This document shows positions 1 to 28,118 of a DNA stretch of 32,000 nucleotides, one piece after another. Every line of letters starts with the position of its first letter. The first letter of the stretch is position 1. A program made the position numbers and the translations under genes. The stretch is from an uncultured Alphaproteobacteria bacterium (GTDB lineage Bacteria > Pseudomonadota > Alphaproteobacteria > Rs-D84 > CACZYB01), in assembly GCA_934246625.1 (NCBI GenBank), contig CAKQHZ010000001.1:150001-182000 (forward strand), in the 5' to 3' direction. Under the pieces are notes generated by a model, which saw only the letters and a program-made list of their open reading frames with translations, did no database searches and was not told the origin of the DNA.

Positions 1-1319
1 GATAACAAATAATATGAAATAAGACATACAAACATAGATGAAATTATAATTGTTGGATTAAGCAATATTGTTGCAAGAATTTGATTTGTATCACTGAATA
101 AATTGACACCATTAAATATTGATGAAGCAGTTACAATTTTTCCGTCATTACCAAGCGAATCCAATAATGATTTTAAAGTTATATCAAATGGTCCAGCATT
201 AAAATTTGTAGTTAAAAGTTCGTTTAATAAATAAGTTGATATGGTCATAGCAACCGATAAAAATGCTATTCTGAAAGTGCATTGGACGACATTAAAGAAT
301 AATGGCTTTGATAATTGTCCTCGGGTATTTTTAAATGTCCACGCACCTATTGTGATTGGCATCATAACACCAACCATTGCAAGTTTAACAACTATATCTA
401 AAAGAATAAGTAAATATGTAAAGGCTATATATAAAAATGCAACTGCGATACAAAGTCCAATAAAAAATGTTAAAACATTCGCAAGAAATGTTATTACCAA
501 ATATATTTTTATAAAAAACATTATTATGGTATAAAGAATACCCCAGCCACCAAGTTTTGATAAAACCAAATTTTCAATCGTTTGCACGGCTGTTGTATTA
601 TATACAAAATCCAAAAGTTTAAATTCACCCATACCTATGCCTGCACGAGCCATTATTTTCAAACCTAATTGACTTCCTGCATTATACGTATTTTCATATT
701 CACGAGTAATGCACATAAGATTACGTAAAGTTTCTTCGTTTGCACTCATTTCATCAACAGATAAATTTGTTTTTTGATAATGGTTTAATACCTTTGTAGC
801 ATAACTTGATAATTTAACATCATCACAAGAAAAATTTTGAACCTTAAAGCCACCTAAAAAACTATCAGTAGAAACATTAAATAATTCGGTATCGGCCCTT
901 GCCTCTGTTAAAACCCATTTTGCAAAATTGGGTCCCATATTCATAATTGGGTCAATGGTATAGCTGAAAATTTCCTTTGCAGGAAGTGAAAGAAATGAAA
1001 GCACAAATGTATAAGCCAATAATTTTACAAAAACTTCTTTTAAAAAAGAAAATGTATTACCCTTTTGCTCCTTTATCGCATTAGTCCAAATATACCAAAT
1101 AAACCAAAATGCCATTGCGATAATAAGAATTTTTTGAAGTATTGGAACAAACTTATCATACAATTTATATACAAAATTAAAGACATATACATATATACCC
1201 TCAAGTATATTACAGCCCCAACAATTTTGTAGTTGTTGTGAAGAAGTATCACTTGCAAATAAAACATTGCTGGACAACAAAAACAATAATGAAAACCACA
1301 ATAATAATTTTTTCTTCAT
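1..1319 (-). CDS. virB6: VirB6/TrbL-like polytopic membrane protein, paralog E (5' part only; continues past the left edge of the window)
   Basis: Not in the ORF track because it is open-ended. I translated the minus strand by hand from ATG 1319..1317 and found no stop down to position 3 (439 codons): MKKKLLLWFSLLFLLSSNVLFASDTSSQQLQNCWGCNILEGIYVYVF...MPITIGAWTFKNTRGQLSKPLFF... It has a signal peptide, a CWGC-helix motif, several TM segments and the P-x4-[GA]-[YW]-x-F-x-x-T-R-like motif shared with the upstream paralogs. Its ATG lies 1 nt after the stop of the upstream gene (TAAAATG). Confidence 0.65.
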   Translation of the reverse strand, partial: MKKKLLLWFSLLFLLSSNVLFASDTSSQQLQNCWGCNILEGIYVYVFNFVYKLYDKFVPILQKILIIAMAFWFIWYIWTNAIKEQKGNTFSFLKEVFVKLLAYTFVLSFLSLPAKEIFSYTIDPIMNMGPNFAKWVLTEARADTELFNVSTDSFLGGFKVQNFSCDDVKLSSYATKVLNHYQKTNLSVDEMSANEETLRNLMCITREYENTYNAGSQLGLKIMARAGIGMGEFKLLDFVYNTTAVQTIENLVLSKLGGWGILYTIIMFFIKIYLVITFLANVLTFFIGLCIAVAFLYIAFTYLLILLDIVVKLAMVGVMMPITIGAWTFKNTRGQLSKPLFFNVVQCTFRIAFLSVAMTISTYLLNELLTTNFNAGPFDITLKSLLDSLGNDGKIVTASSIFNGVNLFSDTNQILATILLNPTIIISSMFVCLISYYLL

Positions 1320-1320
1320 T

Positions 1321-2829
1321 TTATGTATTATCCTTTATTTGTTCGTCCAAATCATTTGCATCTTCACGAAGAGCTTCGAATTTCTTTATTATATCAGATG
1401 TATCTTTTTTTAACAACTTTGTTGTTATTTCACGACCAAATGATTTTGCCCAAGTGCGAGTTGAATTAACAAGTTTTAAGAAGGTTCCGCCAACTTTAAA
1501 CATATAACCACTTACTATTCCTGAATAAGTATCAAGATTTCCCATAATCATCAATGAAAGTAAGCCAAGTGTGAATATAGGGAAAAAACTTCCTCCTGGG
1601 TTTTGAAGACTTGGCATTTCAAAAAGTATATCCTTTGATACTAAACAAGATTGTATTTTTGAAACATTCCCATTCGCAAGGTTAAAGCAATTTGCAAAGG
1701 CTTCGCTTTTCATTAAGGTATCTGTTTGACTTGCAACCAAATCATTATAAATAAAATCAGGAAACAAGTATGTGAAATTATCAAGTGGCCCTGGGTAATA
1801 CATATCACCAATAAAAATAAATGATGAATATATAATGCCTAAAAATATACAATACATAATGATTTTAAATGCCATACCAAACAAAGACTTAAATCCAGTT
1901 GATGAAAACTTTTTTGTTTCGTCATAGGCATAACCCGCCAACATCACAGGAACAAATGCAATTAAAATTCCGATTGTAAAAACTATATCAATCAAAGTAA
2001 AAGGAATGACTAAATACATTAAAAAGAATATTACAGTTATCGCCATACCGCCAATAATATCCAATAAAATCACAGGATTTTTATATTCAAGAAAACCCTT
2101 TAGTGAAAAATCAATCATATTCGCACCTGCGGTTGTCGCACTTAAATACACAACATTTACAGAATTTACCAAACAAAGCAAATCATTTTTTAATTCTTTG
2201 GAAAGGATACCATCAACTTCACTTTGTGGATAAGTTAAATGCTCACACACAGGAGATTTTACAATTTCCGTTCCAACACCAACCCCCATTTCCAACACGG
2301 GAATTGCCGTATTTTCAAAAATTAAATTTGCCATAGATTTCAATCTTGATGGTGTGGAATAACCGATTGCAACACCAATTATTGCAATTATGAAAAGTTT
2401 TTTTGCAAGTTCTTTTATTACATCATTAAAATTGATTTTTTGTTCGTCCTTTATATAACTATAAACTTTTGAAAGCAACCATATTGCAATTCCAAATAAA
2501 ACCAAGGTCCAAACTATATCAGAAATAAATGTAAAAACTTCTAAACCTACAACACTCATCAAATCAAATACTTTTGCGAAAATGCCACAGCTCCAACATC
2601 CATTAAAATTATCGGCAGGAAACATTCCATTTACTGGTTCAATTCCAGAAACGCTTTGATACCAATCAACAAAACTTGTGCCAACAGTAAAATCGCCCTT
2701 GATTGCAAAAATTGACATTGCAACAAAAATTCCCATTGAAAACAATCCTGACCATAAAAATATTTTTAATGGAGCAAGAAAAAATGCCTTCATCAAACGA
2801 TTTTTATTTTTAAATAAGTTATCAAGCAT
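1321..2829 (-). CDS. virB6: VirB6/TrbL-like polytopic membrane protein, paralog D
   Basis: ORF 1321..2874. I prefer the ATG at 2829 (MLDNLFKNK...) because GAGGA lies 5 nt upstream and it gives an 8-nt ATGCTTGA overlap with the upstream stop. N-terminal TM, CWSC motif (nt 2587-2598), at least 6 hydrophobic segments, VPVMLAGYAYDETKKF resembling Agrobacterium VirB6 GPLILVGYIFDRTRD (from memory), and a charged K/D/E tail. Confidence 0.7.
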   Translation of the reverse strand: MLDNLFKNKNRLMKAFFLAPLKIFLWSGLFSMGIFVAMSIFAIKGDFTVGTSFVDWYQSVSGIEPVNGMFPADNFNGCWSCGIFAKVFDLMSVVGLEVFTFISDIVWTLVLFGIAIWLLSKVYSYIKDEQKINFNDVIKELAKKLFIIAIIGVAIGYSTPSRLKSMANLIFENTAIPVLEMGVGVGTEIVKSPVCEHLTYPQSEVDGILSKELKNDLLCLVNSVNVVYLSATTAGANMIDFSLKGFLEYKNPVILLDIIGGMAITVIFFLMYLVIPFTLIDIVFTIGILIAFVPVMLAGYAYDETKKFSSTGFKSLFGMAFKIIMYCIFLGIIYSSFIFIGDMYYPGPLDNFTYLFPDFIYNDLVASQTDTLMKSEAFANCFNLANGNVSKIQSCLVSKDILFEMPSLQNPGGSFFPIFTLGLLSLMIMGNLDTYSGIVSGYMFKVGGTFLKLVNSTRTWAKSFGREITTKLLKKDTSDIIKKFEALREDANDLDEQIKDNT

Positions 2830-4816
2830 TTTTATCCTCTTTGTTATCTTCTTGTTTTTGTTTTTTTCGTTCATCTGCCATTTTTAGAATTTCTTTCTTT
2901 TCTTTGATTTTATCCTTCATATCCTTTGCAAGGACACTTGTATCAAATTTTAACTTAATTGCTTCACGACCAACTGTTGTTGTAAGTTTTACAATGTTTT
3001 GAGTCCATTTAAAGAATGTATTTGCAATCTTTTTTTCTGAAGAAATACCCTTAAATGAATTTGCGATTGATAAAGCCTTTCCCAATAAAAACCAAGATAT
3101 AAAACCTGTGTAAAAAACCTCAAGTAAAGAATTTGGTGAAAATGAAATCATATATAAAACTTCTGATGTGATTTCTTGGATATCAAGTTTTTCCAACGCA
3201 TCTTGGAAATTATAAAAATCCAAACCAGAAATATATAGCATTAACACAGATATAACTGAACACATCAATGTAAGTGATATTATTTGAAATATAGCAGATA
3301 AAAAAGTATCAAATGATTGCTTTACAAATTGTTTTTTATCAAGTGCATAGGCAACCAAAATAAGTGGGAATAAAAACACAACTATGGCAATCATAAAAAA
3401 TGCCTCAACAAAATAAAATGGCACCATTATATTTATGTAAAAGAATATCGCCATAATACAAAAACCGATAATAAGTTTGGTAAAGCCAGAACCATCAAAG
3501 TTTATAAGTTGTCGCCAACCAGTTTGTAAGTTATATTTTCCTATATCAAAATTCATATTATTAAATGCAGATATTCGTTCAATAGTGCAGACAATATTTT
3601 CTTTTATCTCCTTTGAAAAAATAACCTTATTATCACTTATATTTTTTGTTTTATATTTACAAGTAAATTGTTGATTATTGTTTTCTATACCACTTGTTAA
3701 TACACTGTTATACCCCACCATAAAATCAGTTAATGGTCGAATAGTATAATTTAAAATATTATGCTTATCAGTTATGGAAATTGTTAATGCTACACCAACA
3801 ATAAATACCCATACAGATTTTGTGAAAAATGTTTTTATAAATCCCATACCATCTTGTTTTTTAATGACATTATCAAAAAACGCAAACAGCATCCAAAATA
3901 AAAATAATCCAACCATCAAATCAATCGCATAACGTGAAAGATTATCATATAATACATAACCTATTCTTGAAACTGTATTAAATGTAATTTCAAATATATG
4001 ACAAGAGATACAGGATTTTGAAGTTTTGAAATCATACGGAAGACTTTTTAATTTGCAAGATGAACTGTTCCAACTTCCAACCTTTATATCCGTATCAAAA
4101 ATATAAATACCAGCAGTACCAATATTTAAAAATGGTATAGTTATACCTTTTGATTCCTTGTTTTTAACCTCGGCTACAACCTCGCCAAACATATTTATAA
4201 ATGTTGTGCCAAGAACTCCTATTGGTGCCAAGGCCTTTGGATAAGTTTGATTTACAAATTTTTCAAATGATATATTTGAAATTGTTGGAATACAATCGTT
4301 AAAAGCAAAAACCTTAAATATAGGAGAATAAGTTGTCTTTTTTGCAAAAATATTAAAATTCATAAGTCCACCAAGTTTACCCAATGGAATACCTATACGA
4401 TAAGGAAGCAAAGATTTAAGATGTTTTTCAGCACGATTTAAGGCCGTATCCAAAATTTTTTTATCACTTAAATTTTCCGGAATTGGTGTATCAATAAAAT
4501 AACGATAAAGATATTCTGCCTTTTCAGGGGTAATACCTGCTTGACGTAAAATATTTATATCCTTTACAAAAAGAGGTTGTGGGTAAAGTGCGAGATAAGA
4601 ATTCATATCAAAAGATAACCTTTTTTGATATTCCTTAAGATACTTAATTTCCCAACAATAAAACTCTTTGTTTGAAACATTTATTTCATCATTTAACAAA
4701 CCATAATACTTTGGATTTTGACAAAGATGTGGTGTTGATTGTGCAAAAGAAATATTTGGCATATTAAACATTATACCAAAGACAAAGCTATAAATTAAAA
4801 ATATTTTTTTAAGCAT
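2822..4816 (-). CDS. virB6: VirB6/TrbL-like polytopic membrane protein, paralog C, with an extra N-terminal secreted domain
   Basis: 664-aa ORF. Signal peptide ...NISFAQS, then a ~240-aa soluble Cys-containing domain homologous to that of paralog B, CISC motif (nt 4001-4012), multiple TM segments, FPLILVAYALDKKQF (close to VirB6 PLILVGY), and a K/E-rich tail. The start overlaps the upstream stop by 8 nt (ATGCTTAA). Confidence 0.7.
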   Translation of the reverse strand: MLKKIFLIYSFVFGIMFNMPNISFAQSTPHLCQNPKYYGLLNDEINVSNKEFYCWEIKYLKEYQKRLSFDMNSYLALYPQPLFVKDINILRQAGITPEKAEYLYRYFIDTPIPENLSDKKILDTALNRAEKHLKSLLPYRIGIPLGKLGGLMNFNIFAKKTTYSPIFKVFAFNDCIPTISNISFEKFVNQTYPKALAPIGVLGTTFINMFGEVVAEVKNKESKGITIPFLNIGTAGIYIFDTDIKVGSWNSSSCKLKSLPYDFKTSKSCISCHIFEITFNTVSRIGYVLYDNLSRYAIDLMVGLFLFWMLFAFFDNVIKKQDGMGFIKTFFTKSVWVFIVGVALTISITDKHNILNYTIRPLTDFMVGYNSVLTSGIENNNQQFTCKYKTKNISDNKVIFSKEIKENIVCTIERISAFNNMNFDIGKYNLQTGWRQLINFDGSGFTKLIIGFCIMAIFFYINIMVPFYFVEAFFMIAIVVFLFPLILVAYALDKKQFVKQSFDTFLSAIFQIISLTLMCSVISVLMLYISGLDFYNFQDALEKLDIQEITSEVLYMISFSPNSLLEVFYTGFISWFLLGKALSIANSFKGISSEKKIANTFFKWTQNIVKLTTTVGREAIKLKFDTSVLAKDMKDKIKEKKEILKMADERKKQKQEDNKEDKNA

Positions 4817-6902
4817 CTGTTATTTTATTTTCCTCTTTTACATCAACGATGGTTTCGTCATTTTCTTTTGTATTCTGTTTTATTTTATCATCTTTTTTCT
4901 TAATTGCATCTTGTTTTACAAATTCTGGATTTTCACGAGAAACTTTTAAACCTAAAATAGATTTGAAAGTTTTTCTTAGGTTTTCACCTAATGAAAGTTG
5001 ACCTGCTGAACCGCCATAACTTTGTGCGAACTCTGACAATCTAGAATATACATAATACATTGCATAAATAATAAAAATAAATTGTGAAACGCTTATTATA
5101 TCTGTTGGAATTGAATCCAAAATTATATTTGGATTATTTGTTTCAATGGCATTATCAATGATTGAAAGTATATCCTTGTTCGCATTTTTAAAATAAAAAC
5201 CATAAATAAGTGTGCGATTAAATAATGAAAATATTGCAAGAGTTATCATAGTAAATCCAAAATTTTTTGCCGTATTTATTATTGAGGTTATATTAAAACC
5301 TATCCAATTAAAGGCATAACCAAACACCATAAATGGCCAAAGAATTGCAATTTTTAAAATATCAAGAAGTCCATCTAAAATATAAAATGAAATCATAAAG
5401 TTCATTATGAAAAATAATCCCCAAATTAATAATCCGATAAAGAAACTTAATACCTTTGTATCAGAAGAAAAATTAAATAAGTTTTTCATTAAAACTTTAC
5501 CCATAGTCATTTGTTTTGCATTCGTTTGTAATGTATCGGTCAAAAAGCAAACTATATTCCCCATAGTATCCTTTGATAAAACATAACTATCAGTTAAAAT
5601 TTTATTTGATTGTATTTGTTTATTTTTAACAACAGGTGGAATAATTTGGTCGTCTGTTTTTACAACCTTTCTTTGATTTATTTCATCAATTACAGTATCT
5701 GGATTACATGTTGATGGAATATTTTGTGTTGATAAAACTTTGCTGGAGACACCCAAAGTTAAATCAATAATTGGTTGAAATGTAAATGAAAATAATACAT
5801 TCACAGGAGTAAGAAGCACAACTGAGACAATAAATATTAACCTTAGTTTTTCAGCAATCTTGCTATAATAATCACTTAAATCAACTGAAAATGGAGCATT
5901 CTTAAAACCACTTAAAAATGTTGTTGCAAAATAAAAACAACCAAATAAAACCAAAAATGAAATTATATATTTGCTAAATGTTTTATACATAAAATCGAAC
6001 AAGAAAGATATTTCATTAAATATCATCACAATATAAGGACACATAAAACATACTGAACTTTTTGCAACTTCTGCTTTTAAGTTATCAGCCTTACACTTGT
6101 TTTCATTCCAATTTACATTAACAGAAACATTTTGTGAAAAAACTTTGTTATTAAAAGTAATTCGTTTAACACTTGATTTGCCAAGTCCCTGTGAAAGAAC
6201 ATTTCCACCAACAGATGTGTTATATTCGATTGTGGCAACCGTTTCATCAAAAATATTTACAAAGTTTGTGCCCTTTATTGCAACTGGACGAAGTGCCAAT
6301 GGAATTGCTGAAATTACATCAAAATATGTCAAAGTTGATGCAGGAGTATAAAGTGCATTATCAGAAGAATAATTGATACGTTTATCAGTAATGCAATTTC
6401 GCCCTTTTTTATTAACTATACTTCCAATAAATTCGTCCGAATTATCAAAGTCCGTTGTGTTTGTAGTAAAATTTTTTGATGGAGTTATTGTAAAGTCCGC
6501 ACCTATTTGTTCGCTTACAATAGATGTTTTTATAAAATCGTTTAAAAGTTCTTGTGTTGAAAGATATGTTTCATTTTCATCATCAGAATTTATAAAATAA
6601 TCTTGAATAATATTTGGGGTAATGCCAAGACTTCTTAAATAATTAAAATTGTTTTTATAATTTCCATACATATTTTTATATTGTGCAACCGAAATCGCAC
6701 CTATACCATTTCGTTCAAGGTATAAAATATCACTGCAAAAGAAATCCTTTGAATATTTTTCAAGTATTGGCGTTGGATTTGCAAAATAAATTGATGCTTC
6801 CTTATAACTGCATTTTTCATTTGAAGATTGTGCCATAACATCAAAAGCGTTTGAAAAAATTAAGGCAAAAAGCAATGAAATGATTTTAAGATTTAGTTTC
6901 AT
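4809..6902 (-). CDS. virB6: VirB6/TrbL-like polytopic membrane protein, paralog B, with an extra N-terminal secreted domain
   Basis: ORF 4809..6929. I prefer the ATG at 6902 (MKLNLKIISLLFALIFSNAFDVMAQS, a typical signal peptide) because GTGAGG lies 6 nt upstream. The N-terminal domain aligns with paralog C (LRSLGITPNIIQDYF vs LRQAGITPEKAEYLY; PVAIKGTNFVNIFDETVATIE vs PIGVLGTTFINMFGEVVAEVK). CFMC motif (nt 6039-6050), many TM segments, WPFMVFGYAFNW, charged tail. Confidence 0.65.
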   Translation of the reverse strand: MKLNLKIISLLFALIFSNAFDVMAQSSNEKCSYKEASIYFANPTPILEKYSKDFFCSDILYLERNGIGAISVAQYKNMYGNYKNNFNYLRSLGITPNIIQDYFINSDDENETYLSTQELLNDFIKTSIVSEQIGADFTITPSKNFTTNTTDFDNSDEFIGSIVNKKGRNCITDKRINYSSDNALYTPASTLTYFDVISAIPLALRPVAIKGTNFVNIFDETVATIEYNTSVGGNVLSQGLGKSSVKRITFNNKVFSQNVSVNVNWNENKCKADNLKAEVAKSSVCFMCPYIVMIFNEISFLFDFMYKTFSKYIISFLVLFGCFYFATTFLSGFKNAPFSVDLSDYYSKIAEKLRLIFIVSVVLLTPVNVLFSFTFQPIIDLTLGVSSKVLSTQNIPSTCNPDTVIDEINQRKVVKTDDQIIPPVVKNKQIQSNKILTDSYVLSKDTMGNIVCFLTDTLQTNAKQMTMGKVLMKNLFNFSSDTKVLSFFIGLLIWGLFFIMNFMISFYILDGLLDILKIAILWPFMVFGYAFNWIGFNITSIINTAKNFGFTMITLAIFSLFNRTLIYGFYFKNANKDILSIIDNAIETNNPNIILDSIPTDIISVSQFIFIIYAMYYVYSRLSEFAQSYGGSAGQLSLGENLRKTFKSILGLKVSRENPEFVKQDAIKKKDDKIKQNTKENDETIVDVKEENKITDA

Positions 6903-8544
6903 TTGATGCCTCACTTTTATCTTTGGCATTGGATTGAATTTTATCCTTTATCAATCCAGTTGCAGATGATGTATTCTTTGCAAAGCCCACAACATTTCGT
7001 GTTGTAGATTTGGTCCAGTTCACAAAACTTTTTGATGTATTCCAAATGCTTCGTCCAAGATTTGACTCAGATATATTGCCACCAAACCAACCAGCAAACT
7101 TGTTTGTTTCAGTAATAATTTTAAAATTTAAAACCAAAGCAAAAATTATATAAAGGAAATACCAAAAACCAACAAGATTGTTAAACTCCTTGATATTACC
7201 CTCTTGAAGAAGTTTCAAAGCATATTTTGCAGATGACATACGGCTCATTCCATCAAAGGAAAACATTCCACCTAAAACCCAATCATTTAATTCATTGCAA
7301 ATTATTATCGCAACACACATAAAAACTAATCCCTTTGCAAAGCCAAATAATTTTGATAATCCCGCCGTTGCATAAGAACGTGTTTGTTCAAACACATAAC
7401 AAACGGCAAGAAATGGGAAAATTAAAAGAGCGACACCCATAAACAAAACATTTTCGATTATGATAAATGCAAAAAGCATATTTACCAAAAACAATCCTAT
7501 TACAATAGCAATACCACATAATCCCATACGAATATTATCATTCGTAATAAACGCAACTATTGATGTAATATTTGCAAAACGTGAAGCATTATTAGAAATT
7601 ACTTTACCGGTTTTTTGTGTTCGTTTTATATTTTTACCACCATTACCAGAAACGTCCTGTAAAACTTCGTCCAACTTGTCCTTTAATTTTTTAAGGCTTT
7701 CTTCGGTTTTTTTAGTATCCTTTCCACCATCTTTTTGTTTTTGAATTTTAACTTCGACTTTGCCAATCTTTTTTTGCATATTTTTAAGCCACTTTTCACT
7801 TCCAAAATGTTGTAAAGCTCTTCCACCAAAAAAGCCCGCCAAACGAATAGAAACATTTACAACTCCTGCAATTATAATTTGTGGCATACCATATTCAAAA
7901 AGTTCAATTCCTATATTCATATAGGTTTGACGAAGAAGGTCAACTTCCTTAAAAAGGCATACCATATTTTCCTTTGTATTTTCGGATAGTGCCATACCTT
8001 CTTTATAAATAAGTTTTGTATTATCCTTATCACATTCGGGTGGAACGGTTAATTGAAGATTATCAATCTTTTTTCGCAAAACACCTCTTCCAATACCACT
8101 TCCAAAATCAAGAACAAGTTCATAAGTATTTGAAAAAATATTTCGTGGAGAATTTAAAAGCAATGCCCCTATTACAAATGTTGCAAGAAAAAGTTTGCGA
8201 TAGATTTTTTTTAAATACCCACTGTCTATATCAATTTTTGGATTTATACTTACACCCTTTATAAAAATTTTATATGTTTCAAATACAATCCATAATGCAA
8301 GACATACCGATAAAATTTTCAAAGAATCATTTTGGAAAAGGTAAAATGTTTGATATGAAACCTTTGAAAAAGTATCGTAAATATTTTCAAAAACTCCACA
8401 TACCCAACAATCGGTTAAAAGTATGTAAACTCCTGTTGAAATATTATATGTTGCATAAGCAATCAAAAGAACAGCAATAACAAAAAGCACCCAGCCTTTG
8501 ATATCTGAGAATATAGAACCTGCTTTTGATAAAACGCTATTCAA
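6886..8544 (-). CDS. virB6: VirB6/TrbL-like polytopic membrane protein, paralog A (first of the array)
   Basis: 552-aa ORF. The start codon is TTG (plus strand caa at 8542-8544), 6 nt after the stop of the 87-aa ORF, with AAGGAAG upstream. N-terminal TM, CWVC motif (nt 8398-8409), an internal K/E-rich loop, TM bundle, and FPFLAVCYVFEQTRSYATAGLSKLF, which is very similar to Agrobacterium VirB6 GPLILVGYIFDRTRDIAAKWIGQLI (from memory). Confidence 0.7.
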   Translation of the reverse strand: MNSVLSKAGSIFSDIKGWVLFVIAVLLIAYATYNISTGVYILLTDCWVCGVFENIYDTFSKVSYQTFYLFQNDSLKILSVCLALWIVFETYKIFIKGVSINPKIDIDSGYLKKIYRKLFLATFVIGALLLNSPRNIFSNTYELVLDFGSGIGRGVLRKKIDNLQLTVPPECDKDNTKLIYKEGMALSENTKENMVCLFKEVDLLRQTYMNIGIELFEYGMPQIIIAGVVNVSIRLAGFFGGRALQHFGSEKWLKNMQKKIGKVEVKIQKQKDGGKDTKKTEESLKKLKDKLDEVLQDVSGNGGKNIKRTQKTGKVISNNASRFANITSIVAFITNDNIRMGLCGIAIVIGLFLVNMLFAFIIIENVLFMGVALLIFPFLAVCYVFEQTRSYATAGLSKLFGFAKGLVFMCVAIIICNELNDWVLGGMFSFDGMSRMSSAKYALKLLQEGNIKEFNNLVGFWYFLYIIFALVLNFKIITETNKFAGWFGGNISESNLGRSIWNTSKSFVNWTKSTTRNVVGFAKNTSSATGLIKDKIQSNAKDKSEASNETKS

Positions 8545-8550
8545 TCTTAT

Positions 8551-8814
8551 TTACTTCCTTTTTTCAAAGAATTTATTTTTTAACTTTATCAAAGTAGTAA
8601 AAAACTTTGACCTTAAAAACCTTGTCAACCAATCACTTACAACTTGGTTTAGCTTTCGGTTTTCAGGATGTGCCTTTGCATAAAGGATACACAAACACAC
8701 AAATATAATTCCCCAAGAAAGTATCAATATAAAAAACTTTAGCTTTGATATAATATAAAGTCCCAATAAAATTGATAAAACGGTTAAAAGTAATTTCATA
8801 TTGCCTGAAAACAT
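8551..8814 (-). CDS. small two-TM membrane protein, first gene of the VirB6-like operon (function unknown)
   Basis: 87-aa ORF with two hydrophobic helices (LLLTVLSILLGLYIISKL, FFILILSWGIIFVCLCILYA) and a basic C-terminal tail. A strong SD (GAGGGAGGA) lies ~8 nt upstream of the ATG at 8814. Its stop is 6 nt before the start of paralog A. Confidence 0.6.
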   Translation of the reverse strand: MFSGNMKLLLTVLSILLGLYIISKLKFFILILSWGIIFVCLCILYAKAHPENRKLNQVVSDWLTRFLRSKFFTTLIKLKNKFFEKRK

Positions 8815-8888
8815 TTCTTGCGTCCTCCCTCTTTTTATTATATAATATATAATAATTAAAAAATAATCAAATAAAATAAAGGGTTTTT
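8815..8888. promoter_or_regulatory. 74-bp divergent promoter region between the VirB6-like operon (-) and the orphan operon (+)
   Basis: Plus strand: TTGCGT (8818-8823), 17 nt spacer, TATAAT (8841-8846). Minus strand: TTGATT, 17 nt, TATTAT, overlapping the same AT-rich core. A 7-1-7 palindrome TTATATA-A-TATATAA sits at 8838-8852. Promoter hexamers occur easily by chance in DNA this AT-rich. Confidence 0.4.
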
Positions 8889-10367
8889 ATGGAAAATTAT
8901 AATTCATTTTTACCAGACGAGATGTTAAACAAACTTAACAGAAGTTTGGATACATTTTATTTGAAAATTAGGGAAATTATAGAAAACAAATCTTTGGCTT
9001 CTCAACAAAAGGAAGCTGAGATAAAAAAACTTTATGATAGCTCATTTGAAAATATTGACGGAATTGAAAAATCAGATGATTATATTAAGGATTTATTACA
9101 AAATATAAATGATTATTCCAATGGTAAAATTGACGATAAAGAATTGTTCTTTAATTTGGAAAAACATAAGGAAGATACAAGGTCTGCTATCTTAATAAAT
9201 TATGAAAATACTTTCCTTGCAACACAAAGAAAGGAAGAAACAGAAAAGACAAAACAAACCTTAAAAGAATTGTTTCCAAATAGTAATGTTGACAATTTGA
9301 ATCAGGCTCAATTAACAGAAATTACAAATGATTTGGAAAATCCTTATACTGCTACATTATCAGAAAAAACACTGGAAGACTTAAATCTTCCTCGAAAAGA
9401 TGCTGAAAAAATAAAGGTGCAATATAAATATAAAGTCGAAGGCAAAATAACATCTGGAATTGGTGATTTAGATACATTTTTGGGTATTATACAGCCTGGA
9501 CTTAATTTAATACTTAAAACTGGTGCAAAACTTGTTTATGAAGGTATTATTGACCCAGCAGAAAAGGTATTCTTTGGAAACGAAGAACTTGGAATAAAAA
9601 GTTTTTATCAATCATGGGCTGAACAAACTGGAAATTTAAAAAAGGATTATGATTTCCTTCATAAATTCGGTGATATGCCAGCAGATGATACCTTTAAATA
9701 TGCTCAAAGTGTGAAAAAAACTGAAAACCACGTTGCAACATATTGGCAAAATAAAATCATTGAACAAATAAATAAAAATCGTGAAACAACTTATAAAAAT
9801 AATATTTCTCAATATAATCAAAACTACAATCGTATTGTTTCAAATTTGCTAAATGATGAAAATACTTCTCAAGCATTAAAGGACAGCATAAAAAATACTG
9901 ATGATATAACAAAGTTAAAGGTATTTCCTTTGCTTGACTCTATATCAAAAGAGGATAAAGATTTGTTGATGAATAAACCTGAAGAAGTTCAAAAATTTAC
10001 TGGAAATCCATTTGATAAAACAAAGGATATAACCGAAACTCAACAGGCTTTGCAAGAAATTATAAAGCAAGTTATTTCAGAAACTCGTGAAAAAGATAGT
10101 GAAGGAAAACCCGTTGCAAAGGCAACTGATGCTGGAAAATCTGCACTTAATAGTATTATGCACTTAACTGATTTATTTAATAAAGAAGATAGTCCTGAAT
10201 TCAAAGGTAAGTTTTCTGATTTAATAGAGTATTATAAAAATGGATACCTTAAAAATTATGGAAAACTTATTGAAAACAGTGATTACTTTGAATATCAATC
10301 CAGTGAAGAAGCAAAAAATGCTGAATTTATGGATCAATTAAAGGCAATGGTAGGAAACAGTAAATAA
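8889..10367 (+). CDS. hypothetical soluble acidic/Lys-rich protein (orphan; candidate secreted effector)
   Basis: 492-aa ORF with no signal peptide or TM and a composition rich in E/K/D/N/Q. It has one central hydrophobic patch (FLGIIQPGLNLILKTGAKLVYEGII). I recognise no family. First gene of a tightly packed operon. Confidence 0.7.
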   Translation: MENYNSFLPDEMLNKLNRSLDTFYLKIREIIENKSLASQQKEAEIKKLYDSSFENIDGIEKSDDYIKDLLQNINDYSNGKIDDKELFFNLEKHKEDTRSAILINYENTFLATQRKEETEKTKQTLKELFPNSNVDNLNQAQLTEITNDLENPYTATLSEKTLEDLNLPRKDAEKIKVQYKYKVEGKITSGIGDLDTFLGIIQPGLNLILKTGAKLVYEGIIDPAEKVFFGNEELGIKSFYQSWAEQTGNLKKDYDFLHKFGDMPADDTFKYAQSVKKTENHVATYWQNKIIEQINKNRETTYKNNISQYNQNYNRIVSNLLNDENTSQALKDSIKNTDDITKLKVFPLLDSISKEDKDLLMNKPEEVQKFTGNPFDKTKDITETQQALQEIIKQVISETREKDSEGKPVAKATDAGKSALNSIMHLTDLFNKEDSPEFKGKFSDLIEYYKNGYLKNYGKLIENSDYFEYQSSEEAKNAEFMDQLKAMVGNSK

Positions 10368-10368
10368 T

Positions 10369-11457
10369 ATGAAAAAAAAGCTATCATACATATTTCTTAT
10401 TACCTTGATTTTGGTTTTGCCTATTATTTATTGGCTTAATTTTAAATGGGGTATTAAATTTTCTGCTATTGATATAAAAAAATTAAGATTTGCATTTATG
10501 CGTGATAAGTTTTTGCTTTTTGCAACTTTGTGTAATTCTGGGCTTTATGTTTTTGTTGTATATAAAATTATAAACTCTAATGTTATTGAAAATAATGGAA
10601 ACAACAATACAAAAATTCCTGAAAAACAAATAAATACTGTGCCAAATGGTATAATGTTATCTGCCTCTACTGGAAGTGGTCAAATAAACCCAAATGATAA
10701 AAAATGGCAAGATATGTATAAGGGAAATGGTGAAGATGAAGAAGTTGTTGTAAAGGAAGCTCCTCAAACTCCTATCACTAAAGAAAATATTTCAAAGCCA
10801 GAAGATAATAAAATTAGCACGGAAGAAATTCCTCAACCACAACAACCTGTTCTTGAAGAAAATCAAGATAATATTATCAATATTCCACCACTTGAATCCG
10901 AAGATGTTATCAATGTTCAAGTGGAAAGAGCTCTTGCCGAAATTGGATATGAAAATATGGGTGATATTTACATCAATGGTGTGTATGTTGACTTTGTATC
11001 TATCGCAGAAAGTGATACTTTAGTAATTGGAAAAATCAATGCAAAGGGTGGAAATATTATTGCAAATGAAACGCCAACAACTCCAAATACTCCACCATCT
11101 TGGTTCACAAATGAAGAAAAGTATCCATCACCTGTATGGGAAATAAAAAATGCCTCTAATGAATTTGTTAAAATGATTAACGAAGTTTTACCAGAAGACA
11201 ATGGTATAATTGTTAAATCTGTTGTTGTAATACCATCTGCAACTGTTGTTAATCAAGACGACATTGAACCAAAGTGGAAAGAATTAGATGTCGATGTTGT
11301 AAAATTGTCTGGAAAATCAAATCTTCCAAATATAGTTTCCGTGCTTCCTGATAGAAAGGATACCGAAGTTTTGGAAAGTTATAAAAAATTTGTTCAAACC
11401 TTGATGAAATATTTTTCACAAAAATATAAACGTCCAAATATAAAAAAGGCAGGATAG
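10369..11457 (+). CDS. membrane-anchored protein with a C-terminal NERD-like / PD-(D/E)xK-like domain
   Basis: 362-aa ORF starting 1 nt after the upstream stop. Two N-terminal TM helices, a P/E/Q-rich linker (EEIPQPQQPVLEENQDN), then VERALAEIGYENMGDIYINGVYVDFVSIAESDTLVIGKINAKGGNIIANE...SWFTNEEKYPSPVWEIKN, which follows the NERD pattern (D-hh..., hhhExK, G-x-I, W, sP). The ExK glutamate appears to be replaced (VIGK). Confidence 0.6.
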   Translation: MKKKLSYIFLITLILVLPIIYWLNFKWGIKFSAIDIKKLRFAFMRDKFLLFATLCNSGLYVFVVYKIINSNVIENNGNNNTKIPEKQINTVPNGIMLSASTGSGQINPNDKKWQDMYKGNGEDEEVVVKEAPQTPITKENISKPEDNKISTEEIPQPQQPVLEENQDNIINIPPLESEDVINVQVERALAEIGYENMGDIYINGVYVDFVSIAESDTLVIGKINAKGGNIIANETPTTPNTPPSWFTNEEKYPSPVWEIKNASNEFVKMINEVLPEDNGIIVKSVVVIPSATVVNQDDIEPKWKELDVDVVKLSGKSNLPNIVSVLPDRKDTEVLESYKKFVQTLMKYFSQKYKRPNIKKAG

Positions 11458-11460
11458 CCA

Positions 11461-12024
11461 ATGTTATTTACTGAAAATTATTATCGCGATTTGATTGCAA
11501 AGCTGGGAATTCCAGAAATGCCAATAAAAAAAGTTTTGTTCAAAAAAGATTATCTTTCAAATTGTCCTAAACTTTATAATGACTTTTTCAAAATATCAAA
11601 AAAACTTATGCAATTTGTTTATTACAATAATATTGAGGATTTGATTGGTGCAAATTTTTCACACGAAAGTATTATGAAAATGCGTGATGGAATACTTCCT
11701 GAAAATATTGATATATATTTAAAGGTTCCATTTGAATATGGTGGGACAATCGAATTTTCAAATATGTTTTTGATAAAAAAAAGACCATTCAAGGATTTGA
11801 TTGATAGTTTTATTGATGAGCAAGTCTTAACCTTTAATCGTTCCAATGGAAATTTTAATCGTGAAAGTGGTTATCAATATCCAACTGAACTTTATATCCC
11901 AAATCCAAAGGGTATTATATTTTTGCCTGCATTAAAGGGATTTGCTGGAGCTGGCGGTAATACATCTGCAGATATTATGACCGAAATAGGAAGCACTATG
12001 TTTTCAAAATCAGGAGGCTTTTAA
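11461..12024 (+). CDS. hypothetical protein in the toxin position upstream of a SUKH-like gene
   Basis: 187-aa ORF with no signal peptide or TM. The segment DIYLKVPFEYGGTIEFSNMFLIKKRPFKDLI loosely recalls an HNH/beta-beta-alpha-Me core (P-x3-GG-x5-N) but lacks the histidines. Gly-rich C-terminus. Its stop overlaps the next start (TAATG). Confidence 0.6.
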   Translation: MLFTENYYRDLIAKLGIPEMPIKKVLFKKDYLSNCPKLYNDFFKISKKLMQFVYYNNIEDLIGANFSHESIMKMRDGILPENIDIYLKVPFEYGGTIEFSNMFLIKKRPFKDLIDSFIDEQVLTFNRSNGNFNRESGYQYPTELYIPNPKGIIFLPALKGFAGAGGNTSADIMTEIGSTMFSKSGGF

Positions 12025-12470
12025 TGAACGACATTTTTAAAAAATTAAAGCTCTGTATAAATAATATAATATATTTGCCACCTGCAAAAGATGCTCAAAT
12101 TGATTTTGTAAGTGCAATGCTTAAAAATGATGGATTTGCTCCTGTGCCACAAGATTATATAGACTTTTTAAAATTAACAAATGGAATTTGTTCTGGGATT
12201 TTAGAATTTTTTGGAACCGAAAAAATTAAACGTGCAGACTATAACTATAATTTTCCAAATTTAATAGATGCAAATGAAATTTTTAAAAAATCAGAAAATC
12301 CTCTTATGAAAAATTCTGTGCTATTAGGATATAATCTTTTAAATGCAATTATTTATGATAATGATGAAAAACTTTATAAAATTGTAAATAGAAATTTTTT
12401 CACTCCTGTAAAATCTTTTATTACTTTCAAAGATGTTTTAAATGAAATAATTAAAAATCTAAGGGACTAA
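12024..12470 (+). CDS. SMI1/KNR4 (SUKH-1)-like immunity-type protein
   Basis: 148-aa ORF with an AGGAGG SD 7 nt upstream. The N-terminal pattern AKDAQIDFVSAMLKNDGFAPVPQDYIDFLKLTNG matches the SUKH signature (a..eI...E..lg..lP.dY..FL...NG). A later segment (VLLGYNLLNAIIYDNDEKLYKIV) fits the second conserved block. Confidence 0.55.
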   Translation: MNDIFKKLKLCINNIIYLPPAKDAQIDFVSAMLKNDGFAPVPQDYIDFLKLTNGICSGILEFFGTEKIKRADYNYNFPNLIDANEIFKKSENPLMKNSVLLGYNLLNAIIYDNDEKLYKIVNRNFFTPVKSFITFKDVLNEIIKNLRD

Positions 12471-12471
12471 A

Positions 12472-12678
12472 ATGCTTGAAAAACATTCAATTACATTGAT
12501 GGGTCATCAAACAAGTATTTCTATGGAACCAGAATTTTGGATTGAACTTAAAGCTATTGCAAACAAACAAAATAAATCCATCAATGAAATTATTTCGTCT
12601 ATTGATATAAGTCAACATAATGGCAATTTATCAAGTTGCATTCGTGTGTTTATTCTTAAAAACCTTAAAAATAATTAG
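12472..12678 (+). CDS. ribbon-helix-helix domain protein (RHH_4 / PF13467-like, conserved in Alphaproteobacteria)
   Basis: 68-aa ORF. The sequence HSITLMGHQTSISMEPEFWIELKAIANKQNKSINEIISSIDISQHNGNLSSCIRVFIL matches the family pattern H.TS..LE.eFW..L..IA......L..L...ID......NLSSa.RvF.L. Confidence 0.7.
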   Translation: MLEKHSITLMGHQTSISMEPEFWIELKAIANKQNKSINEIISSIDISQHNGNLSSCIRVFILKNLKNN

Positions 12679-17963: not shown

Positions 17964-18479
17964 ATGAGAAAATTTTTATATATACTTGGTTCTATTGCAT
18001 TTGTTTTGCTTGTTCTTGTTTTAGTAAAATATTTGACTGTATCAAAAATCGACACTTCAAAACTCGAATATGTTCAAACTGACACTTCTGTAAATTTAAG
18101 ACGTGTAAAACAAAATGGAAAGTGGGCTTTGGTTGATTTATCAAACAGACCTATAACCGATTTTGAATATGATTCAATAAGTCCATTTATTGAAAAAAAA
18201 TCTGTAATTGTTAAAAATGGCAAGTATGGTTTTATTGATGACAAGGTTAATGTTGTGGCTCCTGCTAAATATGATTTAGCTTTTGACTTTTTAGATGGTG
18301 TTGCAAAAGTTTCTGTTAATGGTAAATGGGGTTTAATTGATGAAAATGGTAATGAACTTATTAAACCTGACTATTATGATTATATTTCTTCTTTTGATTA
18401 CAAAGGTATCGCAAGAGCAGAAAATTATAAGGATAATGTAGTTGTTTTCATTGATAAAACTGGTAAAAAAATAAAATAA
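17964..18479 (+). CDS. WG (KWG) repeat-containing protein, membrane-anchored or secreted
   Basis: 171 aa with an AAAGGAGG SD. N-terminal TM/signal sequence, then repeated G-K-W/Y-G-[LF]-[IV]-D units (NGKWALVDLSNRPIT, NGKYGFIDDKVNVV, NGKWGLIDENGNELIKPDY). Confidence 0.75.
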   Translation: MRKFLYILGSIAFVLLVLVLVKYLTVSKIDTSKLEYVQTDTSVNLRRVKQNGKWALVDLSNRPITDFEYDSISPFIEKKSVIVKNGKYGFIDDKVNVVAPAKYDLAFDFLDGVAKVSVNGKWGLIDENGNELIKPDYYDYISSFDYKGIARAENYKDNVVVFIDKTGKKIK

Positions 18480-18563: not shown

Positions 18564-18965
18564 ATGAGAGAAAAGAAAATGTTTTATAAATTCAAATTTG
18601 TTTTAGTTCCTTTGTGTGTATTATCTGCTTGTTCTATACCAACAAGGGGTGAAATTGAAAATGCAACTGTGTATCATTGGGAAAATAATAATGTCGTAAT
18701 GGCAAAGTTTATTCAGGACCATAAGGCTTGTCTTGGGGTGAAATACACAAAACCAAAATCAAGAATACAAAATTTGCTTGACCCTATGACTCCATATACT
18801 ATTCCAAAGTGGGACGGAATGTGGGCAACATTTGAATCTCGTGGACACAGAGAAGTTGGGCAAAGAATTGCCTTTTCTATACCTTCAAATTCATCTTCTG
18901 GATTGGAAAGCCAATATAAAAAATGTATGATGAACCTTGGATACAGATTGACTTATAAACGATAA
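18564..18965 (+). CDS. hypothetical lipoprotein
   Basis: 133 aa with a signal peptide and lipobox (VLSAC, ...LVPLCVLSAC|SIP). An alternative start is M6 at 18579. No recognisable family. Confidence 0.65.
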   Translation: MREKKMFYKFKFVLVPLCVLSACSIPTRGEIENATVYHWENNNVVMAKFIQDHKACLGVKYTKPKSRIQNLLDPMTPYTIPKWDGMWATFESRGHREVGQRIAFSIPSNSSSGLESQYKKCMMNLGYRLTYKR

Positions 18966-27019: not shown

Positions 27020-28118
27020 ATGCAAGAAAATCTTATTTCTCAAATAAAACAGGTTATTTCTGAAATAAGGGGGTGTCTTTGACATAACCCGTCTTGAAGA
27101 TATTCAAAAAAATTTGGATAAAGAAGCAAATGAGCCAAACTTATGGAATGACAAGGACAAGGCTCAAAAAATCCTTACACAAAAGGCTGAAATAGATGGC
27201 AAAATTAAATTCCTTAGAAACATTGATACTGAATTTGAGGATTTGATTGAACTTCACAATATTGCAATTTCAGAAAATGACGAACAAAGCAAAGTTGAAA
27301 TTGAAAATTCACTTGAAATCTTTTTAAAAAAACTTTCAAAAGAAAAATTGGATTTAATGCTAAATGGTGAAGCGGATAGCAATTCTGCATATCTTGAAAT
27401 TCACAGTGGAGCTGGTGGCACAGAGGCTTGCGATTGGGCAGAAATGCTTCTTCGTATGTATTTAAGATGGGCAGAAAAACATAATTTTAAAGTTTCTTTG
27501 ATTGAAGAACACAGCGGTGATGAAGCTGGTATAAAATCTGCAACTTTGGAAATTGATGGAAGAAATGTTTATGGCTGGTTAAAAGGAGAAAGCGGTATTC
27601 ACAGACTTGTCCGCATATCTCCATTTGATAGTGGGGCAAGACGTCATACAAGTTTTGCATCTGTTTGGGTTTATCCTGTTGTTGATGATAAAATAAATAT
27701 TGAAATCAACGAAAAGGATTTGAAAATTGATACTTATCGTGCAAGTGGTGCTGGTGGTCAACATGTTAATAAAACAGATAGTGCCGTTCGAATTACTCAT
27801 TTACCGACTGGGGTTGTTGTTCAATGCCAAAATGAACGTTCACAATTTAAAAACAAAGAAATTGCTATGAGTATGCTTAAATCTCGACTTTATAATTTGG
27901 AACTTCAAAAACGACAAGAAGAGGCAGATAAAATCAATTCAACAAAATCTGAAATCGGTTGGGGTTCACAAATTCGTTCCTATGTTATGCAACCTTATCA
28001 AATGGTAAAGGATTTGCGAACCAATCATGAAACATCAAATGTTAGTGCGGTGTTAGATGGGGACATTGATGACTTTTTATCATCAACTCTTTTGTTTAAC
28101 AATACAAAAAGGGTATAG
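27020..28118 (+). CDS. prfB: peptide chain release factor 2, expressed via programmed +1 ribosomal frameshift
   Basis: Frame 0 runs from ATG 27020 (MQENLISQIKQVISEIRGCL) to an in-frame TGA at 27080-27082. The +1 frame from 27081 (DITRLEDIQKNLDKEANEPNLW...) is in frame with ORF 27114..28118. SPF motif (RISPFDSG) and GGQ motif (YRASGAGGQHVNKTDSAVR). Confidence 0.95.
27068..27083 (+). promoter_or_regulatory. prfB +1 frameshift site
   Basis: AGGGGG (an internal SD-like element), TGT, then CTT TGA C. This is the canonical autoregulatory RF2 frameshift cassette. Confidence 0.9.

Follow-up and report, generated by a model that had tools for sequence, protein, structure and literature searches.

What does a compact five-gene operon do beside the genes of a type IV secretion system (T4SS)? 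The question arises from the window analyzed here, a stretch of 32,000 nucleotides (nt) from an uncultured Alphaproteobacteria bacterium (GenBank assembly GCA_934246625.1, contig CAKQHZ010000001.1, positions 150,001 to 182,000), in which five plus-strand open reading frames (ORFs; boundaries from an ORF list), here called g1 to g5, diverge from a run of VirB6-like genes. They follow one another at intervals of +1, +3, -1 and +1 nt, with no terminator-like site on the plus strand inside g1-g5 in a terminator scan. A preliminary description of the window, made from its sequence, had read them as one tight operon that might encode either T4SS effectors with an immunity protein or a stand-alone defence system. 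The operon was borne out, down to the boundaries and gaps of its genes, and 13 GTDB species, as well as further metagenome loci, keep its gene order. As to its function, we favor, with moderate confidence, a different answer: the operon, inherited vertically, would serve as an accessory module of a multi-VirB6, Rickettsiales-like T4SS in uncultured, low-GC gut Alphaproteobacteria, with g2, g3 and g4 as its core. A toxin-immunity pair within it, we infer, was once carried by the T4SS and was later domesticated for the sake of its binding interface.

A homologue of HNH toxins without active-site histidines

The 187-residue product of g3 (11461-12024, plus strand) had been taken for an orphan, and direct searches of Pfam, NCBIfam and PADLOC with it returned nothing significant, while a sequence-profile search of the Protein Data Bank (PDB) gave no useful match. 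A profile of g3 and its closest relatives (A1, 14 sequences), searched against 1.84 billion (1.84e9) representative proteins, recovered 231 relatives. Many of these are C-terminal domains of polymorphic toxins of the PT-HINT, PT-TG, PAAR-like, LXG and RHS kinds, each with a weak Pfam HNH match at the position that aligns with g3. Comparison of A1 with a profile of the canonical toxin domains (A9) by hhalign gave a probability of 99.6% (E 2.8e-24, 132 columns), and A9 in turn matched Cas8f-HNH (8e-6), a group II intron maturase, pyocin AP41 and colicin E7 in the PDB. By profile comparison, g3 is a homologue of the colicin/pyocin-type HNH (His-Me finger) DNase toxin domains and belongs to a toxin family rather than standing alone.

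The canonical toxin motif, G-W-Q-V-H-H-K-x-P...G-G-T-N...N-L...P-Y-H, reads N-I-D-I-Y-L-K-V-P...G-G-T-I...N-M...P-F-K at the same columns of g3. Mapped onto colicin E9, the residues in question are what we take to be H102 (metal ligand), H103 (general base), N118 (structural), and H127 and H131 (ligands); their counterparts in g3 are Y86, L87, N101, K111 and D115, respectively. Only the structural asparagine N101 and the P/GG scaffold survive in g3. Across the g3 clade (14 of 14 aligned members, 25 representatives), the four active-site histidines are replaced by Y/F/C, L/I/M, K/R and D/N. With the general base and all three metal-ligand histidines lost, g3 is predicted to be catalytically dead. 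The AlphaFold2 model of g3 contains a beta-beta-alpha unit (E83-87, E102-106, H107-129), and the C-terminal tail of the protein is conserved as GGNTSxDxMTEIGSTMF.

We took a census of the motif in the 150 best representatives of the g3 relatives. Of these, 74 carry the canonical motif (HH..N), about 46 lack the general base alone (38 of them with histidine at all three ligand positions), and 25 have no histidines. The HNH site thus appears in a graded decay series, from full, through loss of the general base, to loss of the metal site. The two marks of a polymorphic toxin, N-terminal fusion and strain-level cassette polymorphism, are both missing from g3: it is a stand-alone 187-residue domain with no N-terminal trafficking or pre-toxin domain, it is always single-copy at one locus with no cassette polymorphism, and four strains of the window species share the same g3 sequence (100% identity).

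A SUKH partner and a probable toxin-immunity origin

The start of g4 (12024-12470, plus strand, 148 residues) overlaps the stop of g3 by 1 nt. Its product, previously proposed to be SUKH-like, reached 60.4 bits against NCBIfam NF038335 (YrhA/YPO0640 family; cut-off 55) and 21.3 bits against Pfam SMI1_KNR4, under the gathering score of 25.4. Among 12 orthologues, SMI1_KNR4 (SUKH-1) matched six (best E 9e-7), SUKH_6 four and SUKH_5 four; a profile search of the PDB with g4 gave no useful match. These matches confirm g4 as a SUKH (SMI1/KNR4, YrhA-family) protein.

A g4-like gene lies directly 3' of the g3-like gene in every locus with enough downstream sequence. The gene after the canonical toxins of the family was likewise SUKH in both toxins that were sampled. 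Together with the homology of g3 to HNH toxins, this indicates that the g3-g4 pair descends from a DNase toxin and its SUKH immunity protein. Sequence comparison thereby shows a toxin-immunity origin for the pair, with g4 as the presumed former immunity partner.

A second arrangement around virD4

Relatives of g3 that rank between its own clade and the true toxins led us to a different gene layout, in which a g2-like gene, a gene for VirD4 (called by Pfam T4SS-DNA_transf, TrwB_AAD_bind and TraG-D_C), a g3-like gene and a g4-like gene follow one another. Within this virD4-linked set, which comprises 26 loci from a metagenome scan together with loci L020, L022, L023 and L056, VirD4 is encoded directly upstream of the g3-like gene in 22 of the 22 loci that hold upstream sequence, and the complete g2-virD4-g3-g4 order is present in 18 of those 22. 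The genomes concerned range from 31 to 59% in GC content, and VirD4 identity falls to about 60%. The cassette is flanked by housekeeping genes, and the flanks differ among lineages. In locus L046, it lies directly upstream of uvrB, as the window operon nearly does, which suggests that the two loci are orthologous. Locus L049 has the order RHH_4, g2, virD4, g3, g4, with a gene of the family of g5 upstream of g2.

The HNH motif of the virD4-linked proteins reads V-H-[LIM]-K...T-H-P-Y-H-x-x-I-H, with the general base lost and the three metal ligands kept. In the sampled loci, motif class and gene layout match: the histidine-free class occurs in operons that have no virD4 between g2 and g3 and, where the contig is long enough to show it, end in RHH_4 (the window, L005, L021, L024, L054), and the class lacking the general base adjoins virD4. 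Homologues of g2, g3 and g4 thus bracket virD4 in many other genomes, which strengthens the T4SS link that had been suggested from the window, and the three genes are recurrently linked to two different T4SS genes.

The virD4-linked g3 homologues (L046 7590-8543, L033 7491-8540, L022 3455-4420) also share a conserved N-terminal MWDWSG motif, and between this motif and the pseudo-HNH domain runs a low-complexity linker rich in P and Q (PQPYAPQQP repeats, for example), whose length varies greatly.

A membrane-anchored pseudo-nuclease

The product of g2 (10369-11457, plus strand, 362 residues) had been described as a NERD-like protein anchored by transmembrane (TM) segments. Its architecture agrees with the anchor: two hydrophobic segments form an N-terminal TM hairpin, followed by a disordered linker (about residues 73-167) and a C-terminal domain (about 175-352), for which AlphaFold2 gave a pLDDT of about 90. 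In a Foldseek search of the PDB with this domain, NucS 2vld ranked at the top (E 1.7e-3, prob 1.0) with SfsA and EndoMS, and Can2 and Card1 followed lower down, all at borderline E-values. As modeled, the domain has the restriction-endonuclease-like alpha-beta-beta-beta-alpha-beta core of the PD-(D/E)xK fold.

The nuclease-like fold of the earlier proposal therefore stands, but Pfam NERD itself receives only weak support. The window g2 had no Pfam match at E<=1, and NERD was sub-threshold in 4 of 27 distinct family members, the best of which reached 20.8 bits where the gathering score is 22.1. Searches of NCBIfam and PADLOC with g2 returned nothing significant, and a profile search of the PDB gave no useful match. 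The catalytic D...(D/E)xK signature is absent: D208 is conserved, but the window's clade has [IVL]-G-[KILM] at the ExK position. In the virD4-linked relatives, the third-strand position reads h-D-x-E, again without a conserved lysine. Because the (D/E)xK position is not conserved, "NERD-like" is right for the fold of g2 and wrong for an enzyme.

A K/R-rich stretch after the TM region of the virD4-linked g2 homologues suggests that the domain is cytoplasmic. In L033-L037 and L045, virD4 is preceded by two tandem, highly diverged g2 paralogues (at L033 2806-3921 and 3941-5017, for example).

Conservation of the VirB6-linked operon

We refer to the arrangement of the window as type A, that is, an array of VirB6-like genes preceded by a small gene, tm87, on the minus strand, g1-g5 on the plus strand, and no virD4 between g2 and g3. 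Four VirB6/TrbL-like paralogues were identified from TrbL matches and cross-hits among the paralogues (6886-8544, 4809-6929, 2822-4816 and 1321-2874, all on the minus strand). Against the Pfam TrbL cut-off of 25.9 bits, 6886-8544 scored 26.2 and 1321-2874 fell short with 20.2; the remaining ORFs are tied to the array by cross-hits. A further VirB6-like ORF, the fifth (1-1319, minus strand), encodes at least 439 residues and runs off the start of the window, which brings the array to at least five paralogues, as in rvhB6a-e of Rickettsiales. A tandem VirB6 array of five ORFs, as expected of a Rickettsiales-like (rvh-type) T4SS locus, is thus present, and the divergence from VirB6-like genes noted in the preliminary description is upheld, with at least five such genes beyond a 74-bp spacer. 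The N-terminus encoded by the fifth ORF resembles a signal peptide, and its product carries a CWGC motif.

The first gene of the divergent VirB6 operon, tm87 (8551-8814, minus strand), encodes a basic protein of 87 residues (pI 10.4) with two TM segments by hydropathy and no Pfam family, which may be VirB3- or VirB2-like. It is kept at the same position in all loci that contain that side of the contig, L005 and L024 included.

In a scan of one genome per GTDB species, g3 was found in 13 species, all represented by uncultured Alphaproteobacteria metagenome-assembled genomes (MAGs) from human, ruminant and other animal guts, and the type A order and tight spacing are kept in every sufficiently long locus of the 13. 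The MAG labels are Alphaproteobacteria and, in one case, Rickettsiales; all named members that were checked are annotated "hypothetical protein" and come from Alphaproteobacteria MAGs. Identity to the window proteins is 49-82% for g3, 52-77% for g5, 25-56% for g2, 34-66% for g4 and 26-43% for g1, as compared with 33-73% for the VirB6 paralogues, 38-67% for AsmA and 85-92% for UvrB. By this measure, g3 is the best-conserved and slowest-evolving gene of the operon. The distant lineages L005 (57% GC), L024, L021 and L054 keep the same operon. A VirB6 array lies beside the operon in every type A locus containing that side of the contig, and L005 and L024, whose contigs extend upstream, keep the divergent array; the downstream flank of L005 differs. 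A variable conflict locus finds no support here. The operon is single-copy and fixed in order, with g3 as its most conserved gene, and the comparison shows that it is inherited vertically and under strong purifying selection, unlike a variable conflict island.

These results bear on the proposal that the operon encodes an active, T4SS-delivered nuclease effector (g3, perhaps g1 or g2) with g4 as its immunity protein, used to kill neighboring bacteria or to attack host cells. The membership of g3 in the polymorphic-toxin HNH family, the SUKH gene that follows it, from a classic immunity family, and the position beside T4SS genes speak for such a function, and effector genes directly downstream of virD4 have precedents in virD5 of Agrobacterium and the bep genes of Bartonella. 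Basal Rickettsiales have been proposed to kill other microbes by the rvh T4SS (PMC11077975). However, all four colicin-E9-type active-site histidines are replaced in every member of the clade, the virD4-linked relatives are without the general base, and g2 has no (D/E)xK motif; moreover, a slowest-evolving, single-copy gene without cassette polymorphism or an N-terminal trafficking domain is not what an active toxin would lead one to expect. We consider this explanation unlikely. What remains of the original toxin-immunity or effector module is the ancestry of g3-g4 as a nuclease toxin with its SUKH protein; the active toxin does not.

Alternatively, the genes might form a housekeeping or stress operon unrelated to secretion, whose adjacency to T4SS genes is an accident kept by low rearrangement in small genomes. 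RHH_4, the family of g5, is widespread in Alphaproteobacteria, and two observations that favor an accident also count against our preferred reading. First, the whole region of about 20 kb, asmA and uvrB included, is syntenic in the 13 species, so that the VirB6 adjacency there is weak evidence when taken alone. Second, the g3-g4 pair occurs by itself at L057 10001-11034 and L058 1666-2699, with no VirD4, VirB6 or g2 gene within 10 kb, the one exception to the T4SS linkage. (The pair there is divergent from genes for proteins of 582 and 704 residues with prepilin-like N-termini.) Three more points count against our preferred reading: the window itself contains no virD4 gene; a Foldseek comparison of the g3 model with HNH structures was not significant (best prob 0.25), so that the fold assignment of g3 rests on profile homology; and a crude neighbor-joining tree of the HNH domain separates the three motif classes as blocks but does not resolve their order or recover the two degenerate classes as sisters. 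Against an accident stand the two layouts, each of which ties the genes to a different T4SS component, VirB6 or VirD4, and the persistence of virD4 between g2 and g3 over the full span of GC content and VirD4 divergence given above, with differing flanks. An accidental association therefore seems improbable to us, and we retain the reading of the operon as a T4SS accessory module.

A candidate regulator and its operator

The last gene, g5 (12472-12678, plus strand, 68 residues), encodes an RHH_4 protein, as had been predicted: the match to PF13467 is full-length and scores 77.4 bits (E 8.5e-22; cut-off 25). In every type A locus that reaches that far, the distant L005, L021, L024 and L054 included, this gene comes last. 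A possible identity of g5 with cREM-3, a small RvhD4-binding Rickettsia protein, was rejected because cREM-3 is DUF2671.

Between g1 and the divergent VirB6-like run lie the 74 bp (8815-8888) that form the shared control region of the VirB6 operon and g1-g5. This spacer has a mean pairwise identity of 82% over nine loci (the window and eight related species), as compared with 61% for the asmA-uvrB spacer used as a control; in the same nine loci, the g1 proteins are only 24-49% identical. It contains a 12-bp palindrome, TATTATATAATA (8836-8847), and overlapping, divergent promoter-like elements, TTGATT-N17-TATTAT on the minus strand and TTGCGT-N17-TATAAT on the plus strand, the latter read by eye. 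A promoter scan gave 23 sites against 28.5 expected and is uninformative in such AT-rich DNA. We suggest that g5 is probably a DNA-binding regulator of the locus that acts on the 74-bp spacer, and that the conserved palindromic spacer is a candidate operator for it.

The lineage-specific g1 and the surrounding genes

The first gene, g1 (8889-10367, plus strand), encodes a protein of 492 residues with a pI of 5.0, a net charge of -18 and no hydrophobic or TM segment. Searches of Pfam, NCBIfam, PADLOC and the PDB with g1 gave no significant match. It had been described as an acidic soluble orphan. The first two attributes hold but the third does not, as g1 has relatives within the clade, and none detectable outside it. 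We regard it as a predicted acidic, soluble cytoplasmic protein specific to this group of lineages. It is the fastest-evolving gene of the operon, with a conserved central block at about residues 165-295 (alignment A8). Its position is occupied by a gene of 421-921 residues in the type A loci that hold that side of the contig, and by none in the virD4-linked loci. Two origins of g1 were considered. Descent as a divergent g2 paralogue was rejected, as the g2 profile (A2) gave no match to the gene that takes the place of g1 in the distant L005 and L024; a VirD4 remnant was set aside without a VirD4 comparison.

The GC content is about 29%, and the locus is chromosomal. Downstream of g5 follow the convergent asmA and then uvrB, and the rest of the window consists of housekeeping genes (comM, ddl, alaS, prfB, ctpA and an M23 peptidase gene). 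Among the window proteins scanned, no mobile-element or defence genes were found near the operon; no relaxase gene or oriT-like repeat was found near it, and the window gave no Rfam match.

This setting is informative with regard to a relic DNA-processing (Dtr-like) module for T4SS-mediated DNA transfer, in which an RHH accessory protein and nuclease folds would sit beside the coupling protein. The gene order in L049 would fit such a module, as would the PD-(D/E)xK fold of g2 and the HNH fold of g3, with its three metal ligands in the virD4-linked class; both folds bind DNA. Analogies exist in trwA-trwB-trwC of plasmid R388 and in the restriction-endonuclease-like MOBC relaxases. However, catalytic residues are missing from both folds, g2 is membrane-anchored and has no HTH domain, and no part in DNA transfer is known for SUKH proteins. 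With no relaxase, oriT-like repeat or mobile gene nearby, and a chromosomal position among housekeeping genes, we give a DNA-transfer relic little credence.

A defence system against phages or plasmids that stands alone and combines NERD, HNH and SUKH parts fares worse. Conflict systems often contain nuclease folds and partners of the SUKH type (PMC3113570), and a search of the five proteins against PADLOC-DB 2.0 did return one weak match, of g3 to Orf5 (E 0.01, 12.7 bits), and none for the other four. No PADLOC family was thus matched at a meaningful score, the nuclease active sites are degenerate, and the operon has a fixed chromosomal position and vertical inheritance, without island-like presence and absence and without defence or mobile neighbors. 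We regard the defence system put forward in the preliminary description as very improbable.

Several smaller features of the window were recorded. The stop codons of g5 and the convergent asmA overlap tail to tail by 4 nt (12675-12678), which leaves no space for a terminator between these genes. A release-factor gene with PCRF and RF-1 domains (27114-28118, plus strand) was called with a TTG start, and its match begins at profile position 9; it looks like prfB with the usual programmed +1 frameshift and a short first exon upstream. Between uvrB and comM lie genes for a 171-residue WG-repeat protein (17964-18479, plus strand) and a 133-residue protein without a family (18564-18965, plus strand), both of which are kept in strains of the same species.

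A model for the accessory module

How might such a module work? In the mechanism that we propose, the inert g3 would stay bound to g4 as an obligate heterodimer, which would dock on VirD4 in one of two roles: that of a cargo and its chaperone, the cargo being conserved, non-catalytic and translocated, or that of an adaptor that recruits substrates or gates their passage. The membrane protein g2 would tether the assembly at the inner membrane, g5 would bind the palindromic 74-bp spacer and so co-regulate g1-g5 and the divergent VirB6 operon, and g1 may be a fast-evolving, lineage-specific acidic partner or cargo. A narrower version of this proposal, which we put forward tentatively and think possible rather than probable, is that g3-g4 and g2 represent a new class of coupling-protein accessory complex, that is, a non-catalytic adaptor or gate on VirD4 that selects or times substrates, with the pseudo-NERD protein g2 as its tether. 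The cREM-5/5p two-gene module was considered as a counterpart of g3-g4 and set aside without a sequence comparison.

The set travels with virD4 or with the VirB6 array through a broad group of anaerobic, uncultured Alphaproteobacteria sampled from the human gut, the rumen and digesters, which makes g2, g3 and g4 concrete candidates for coupling-protein partners or conserved cargo. To our knowledge, no accessory or adaptor proteins have been described for the Rickettsiales-like coupling protein, and substrate recognition in these systems is little understood. Should the adaptor version be true, it would be the first instance of a secretion machine that has recruited a toxin-immunity pair as one of its components, and would supply a missing substrate-recognition layer of Rickettsiales-like T4SSs. 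The stepwise decay of the HNH site would likewise be a clean example of a pair retained for its binding interface rather than for killing. Annotation pipelines, or defence and toxin finders, that go by domain content only would misread such loci as active toxin-immunity modules.

Comparison with known systems

Pairs of HNH and SUKH proteins are known, as are effector-immunity pairs of T4SSs, while a dead HNH-SUKH pair conserved together with a pseudo-NERD protein and the coupling protein appears to be undescribed. The earlier remark that the gene combination was not recognized as a described system agrees with our literature searches, which found no account of the module. Full-text searches yielded no paper that links SUKH or HNH proteins with VirD4, and searches on gut alphaproteobacterial orders and T4SSs found no description of the module. 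In the main survey of Rickettsiales T4SS effectors, "SUKH" is absent and "HNH" occurs once, for an unrelated toxin warhead.

The closest relatives by descent are the HNH DNases of polymorphic toxin systems and their SUKH proteins (Zhang, Iyer and Aravind 2011, PMC3113570), with colicin E7/E9 and pyocin AP41 as archetypes, to which g3 is homologous and with which it shares a SUKH gene in the next position. Unlike these toxins, g3 lacks the active-site histidines, a trafficking domain and polymorphism, behaves as a slowly evolving single-copy core gene, and is tied to T4SS genes rather than to type V, VI or VII secretion loci.

As for g2, it shares with NERD (PF08378) and the NucS/EndoMS nucleases their fold, near-threshold NERD matches in some family members and a G-x-I...W...SP pattern after the third strand. 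It differs from them in the absence of a conserved (D/E)xK, in its fusion to a TM hairpin and a disordered linker, and in its position upstream of virD4 in the relatives.

In genomic setting, the module resembles the X-Tfe/X-Tfi pairs of the bacteria-killing T4SS of Xanthomonadales and the virD4-adjacent effectors (virD5, bep), in that a toxin-derived protein and its partner lie beside T4SS genes, in the relatives directly after virD4. Pfam scans of the operon proteins revealed neither an XVIPCD nor any other domain known to interact with VirD4. In contrast to X-Tfe/X-Tfi, the toxin here is apparently dead, its partner is a SUKH protein rather than an X-Tfi of the periplasmic lipoprotein type, and the set does not vary from strain to strain but is kept across genera.

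In presumed function, finally, the module recalls DotL of Legionella with DotM, DotN, IcmS, IcmW and LvgA, in that small soluble and membrane proteins are encoded with a coupling ATPase and are presumed to act on it. The three-histidine metal site that the virD4-linked relatives retain, seemingly without catalysis, might be likened to the zinc-binding DotN. The likeness is one of functional analogy only: no sequence or fold relationship to the DotL complex was found, and the T4SS here is of type IVA and Rickettsiales-like.

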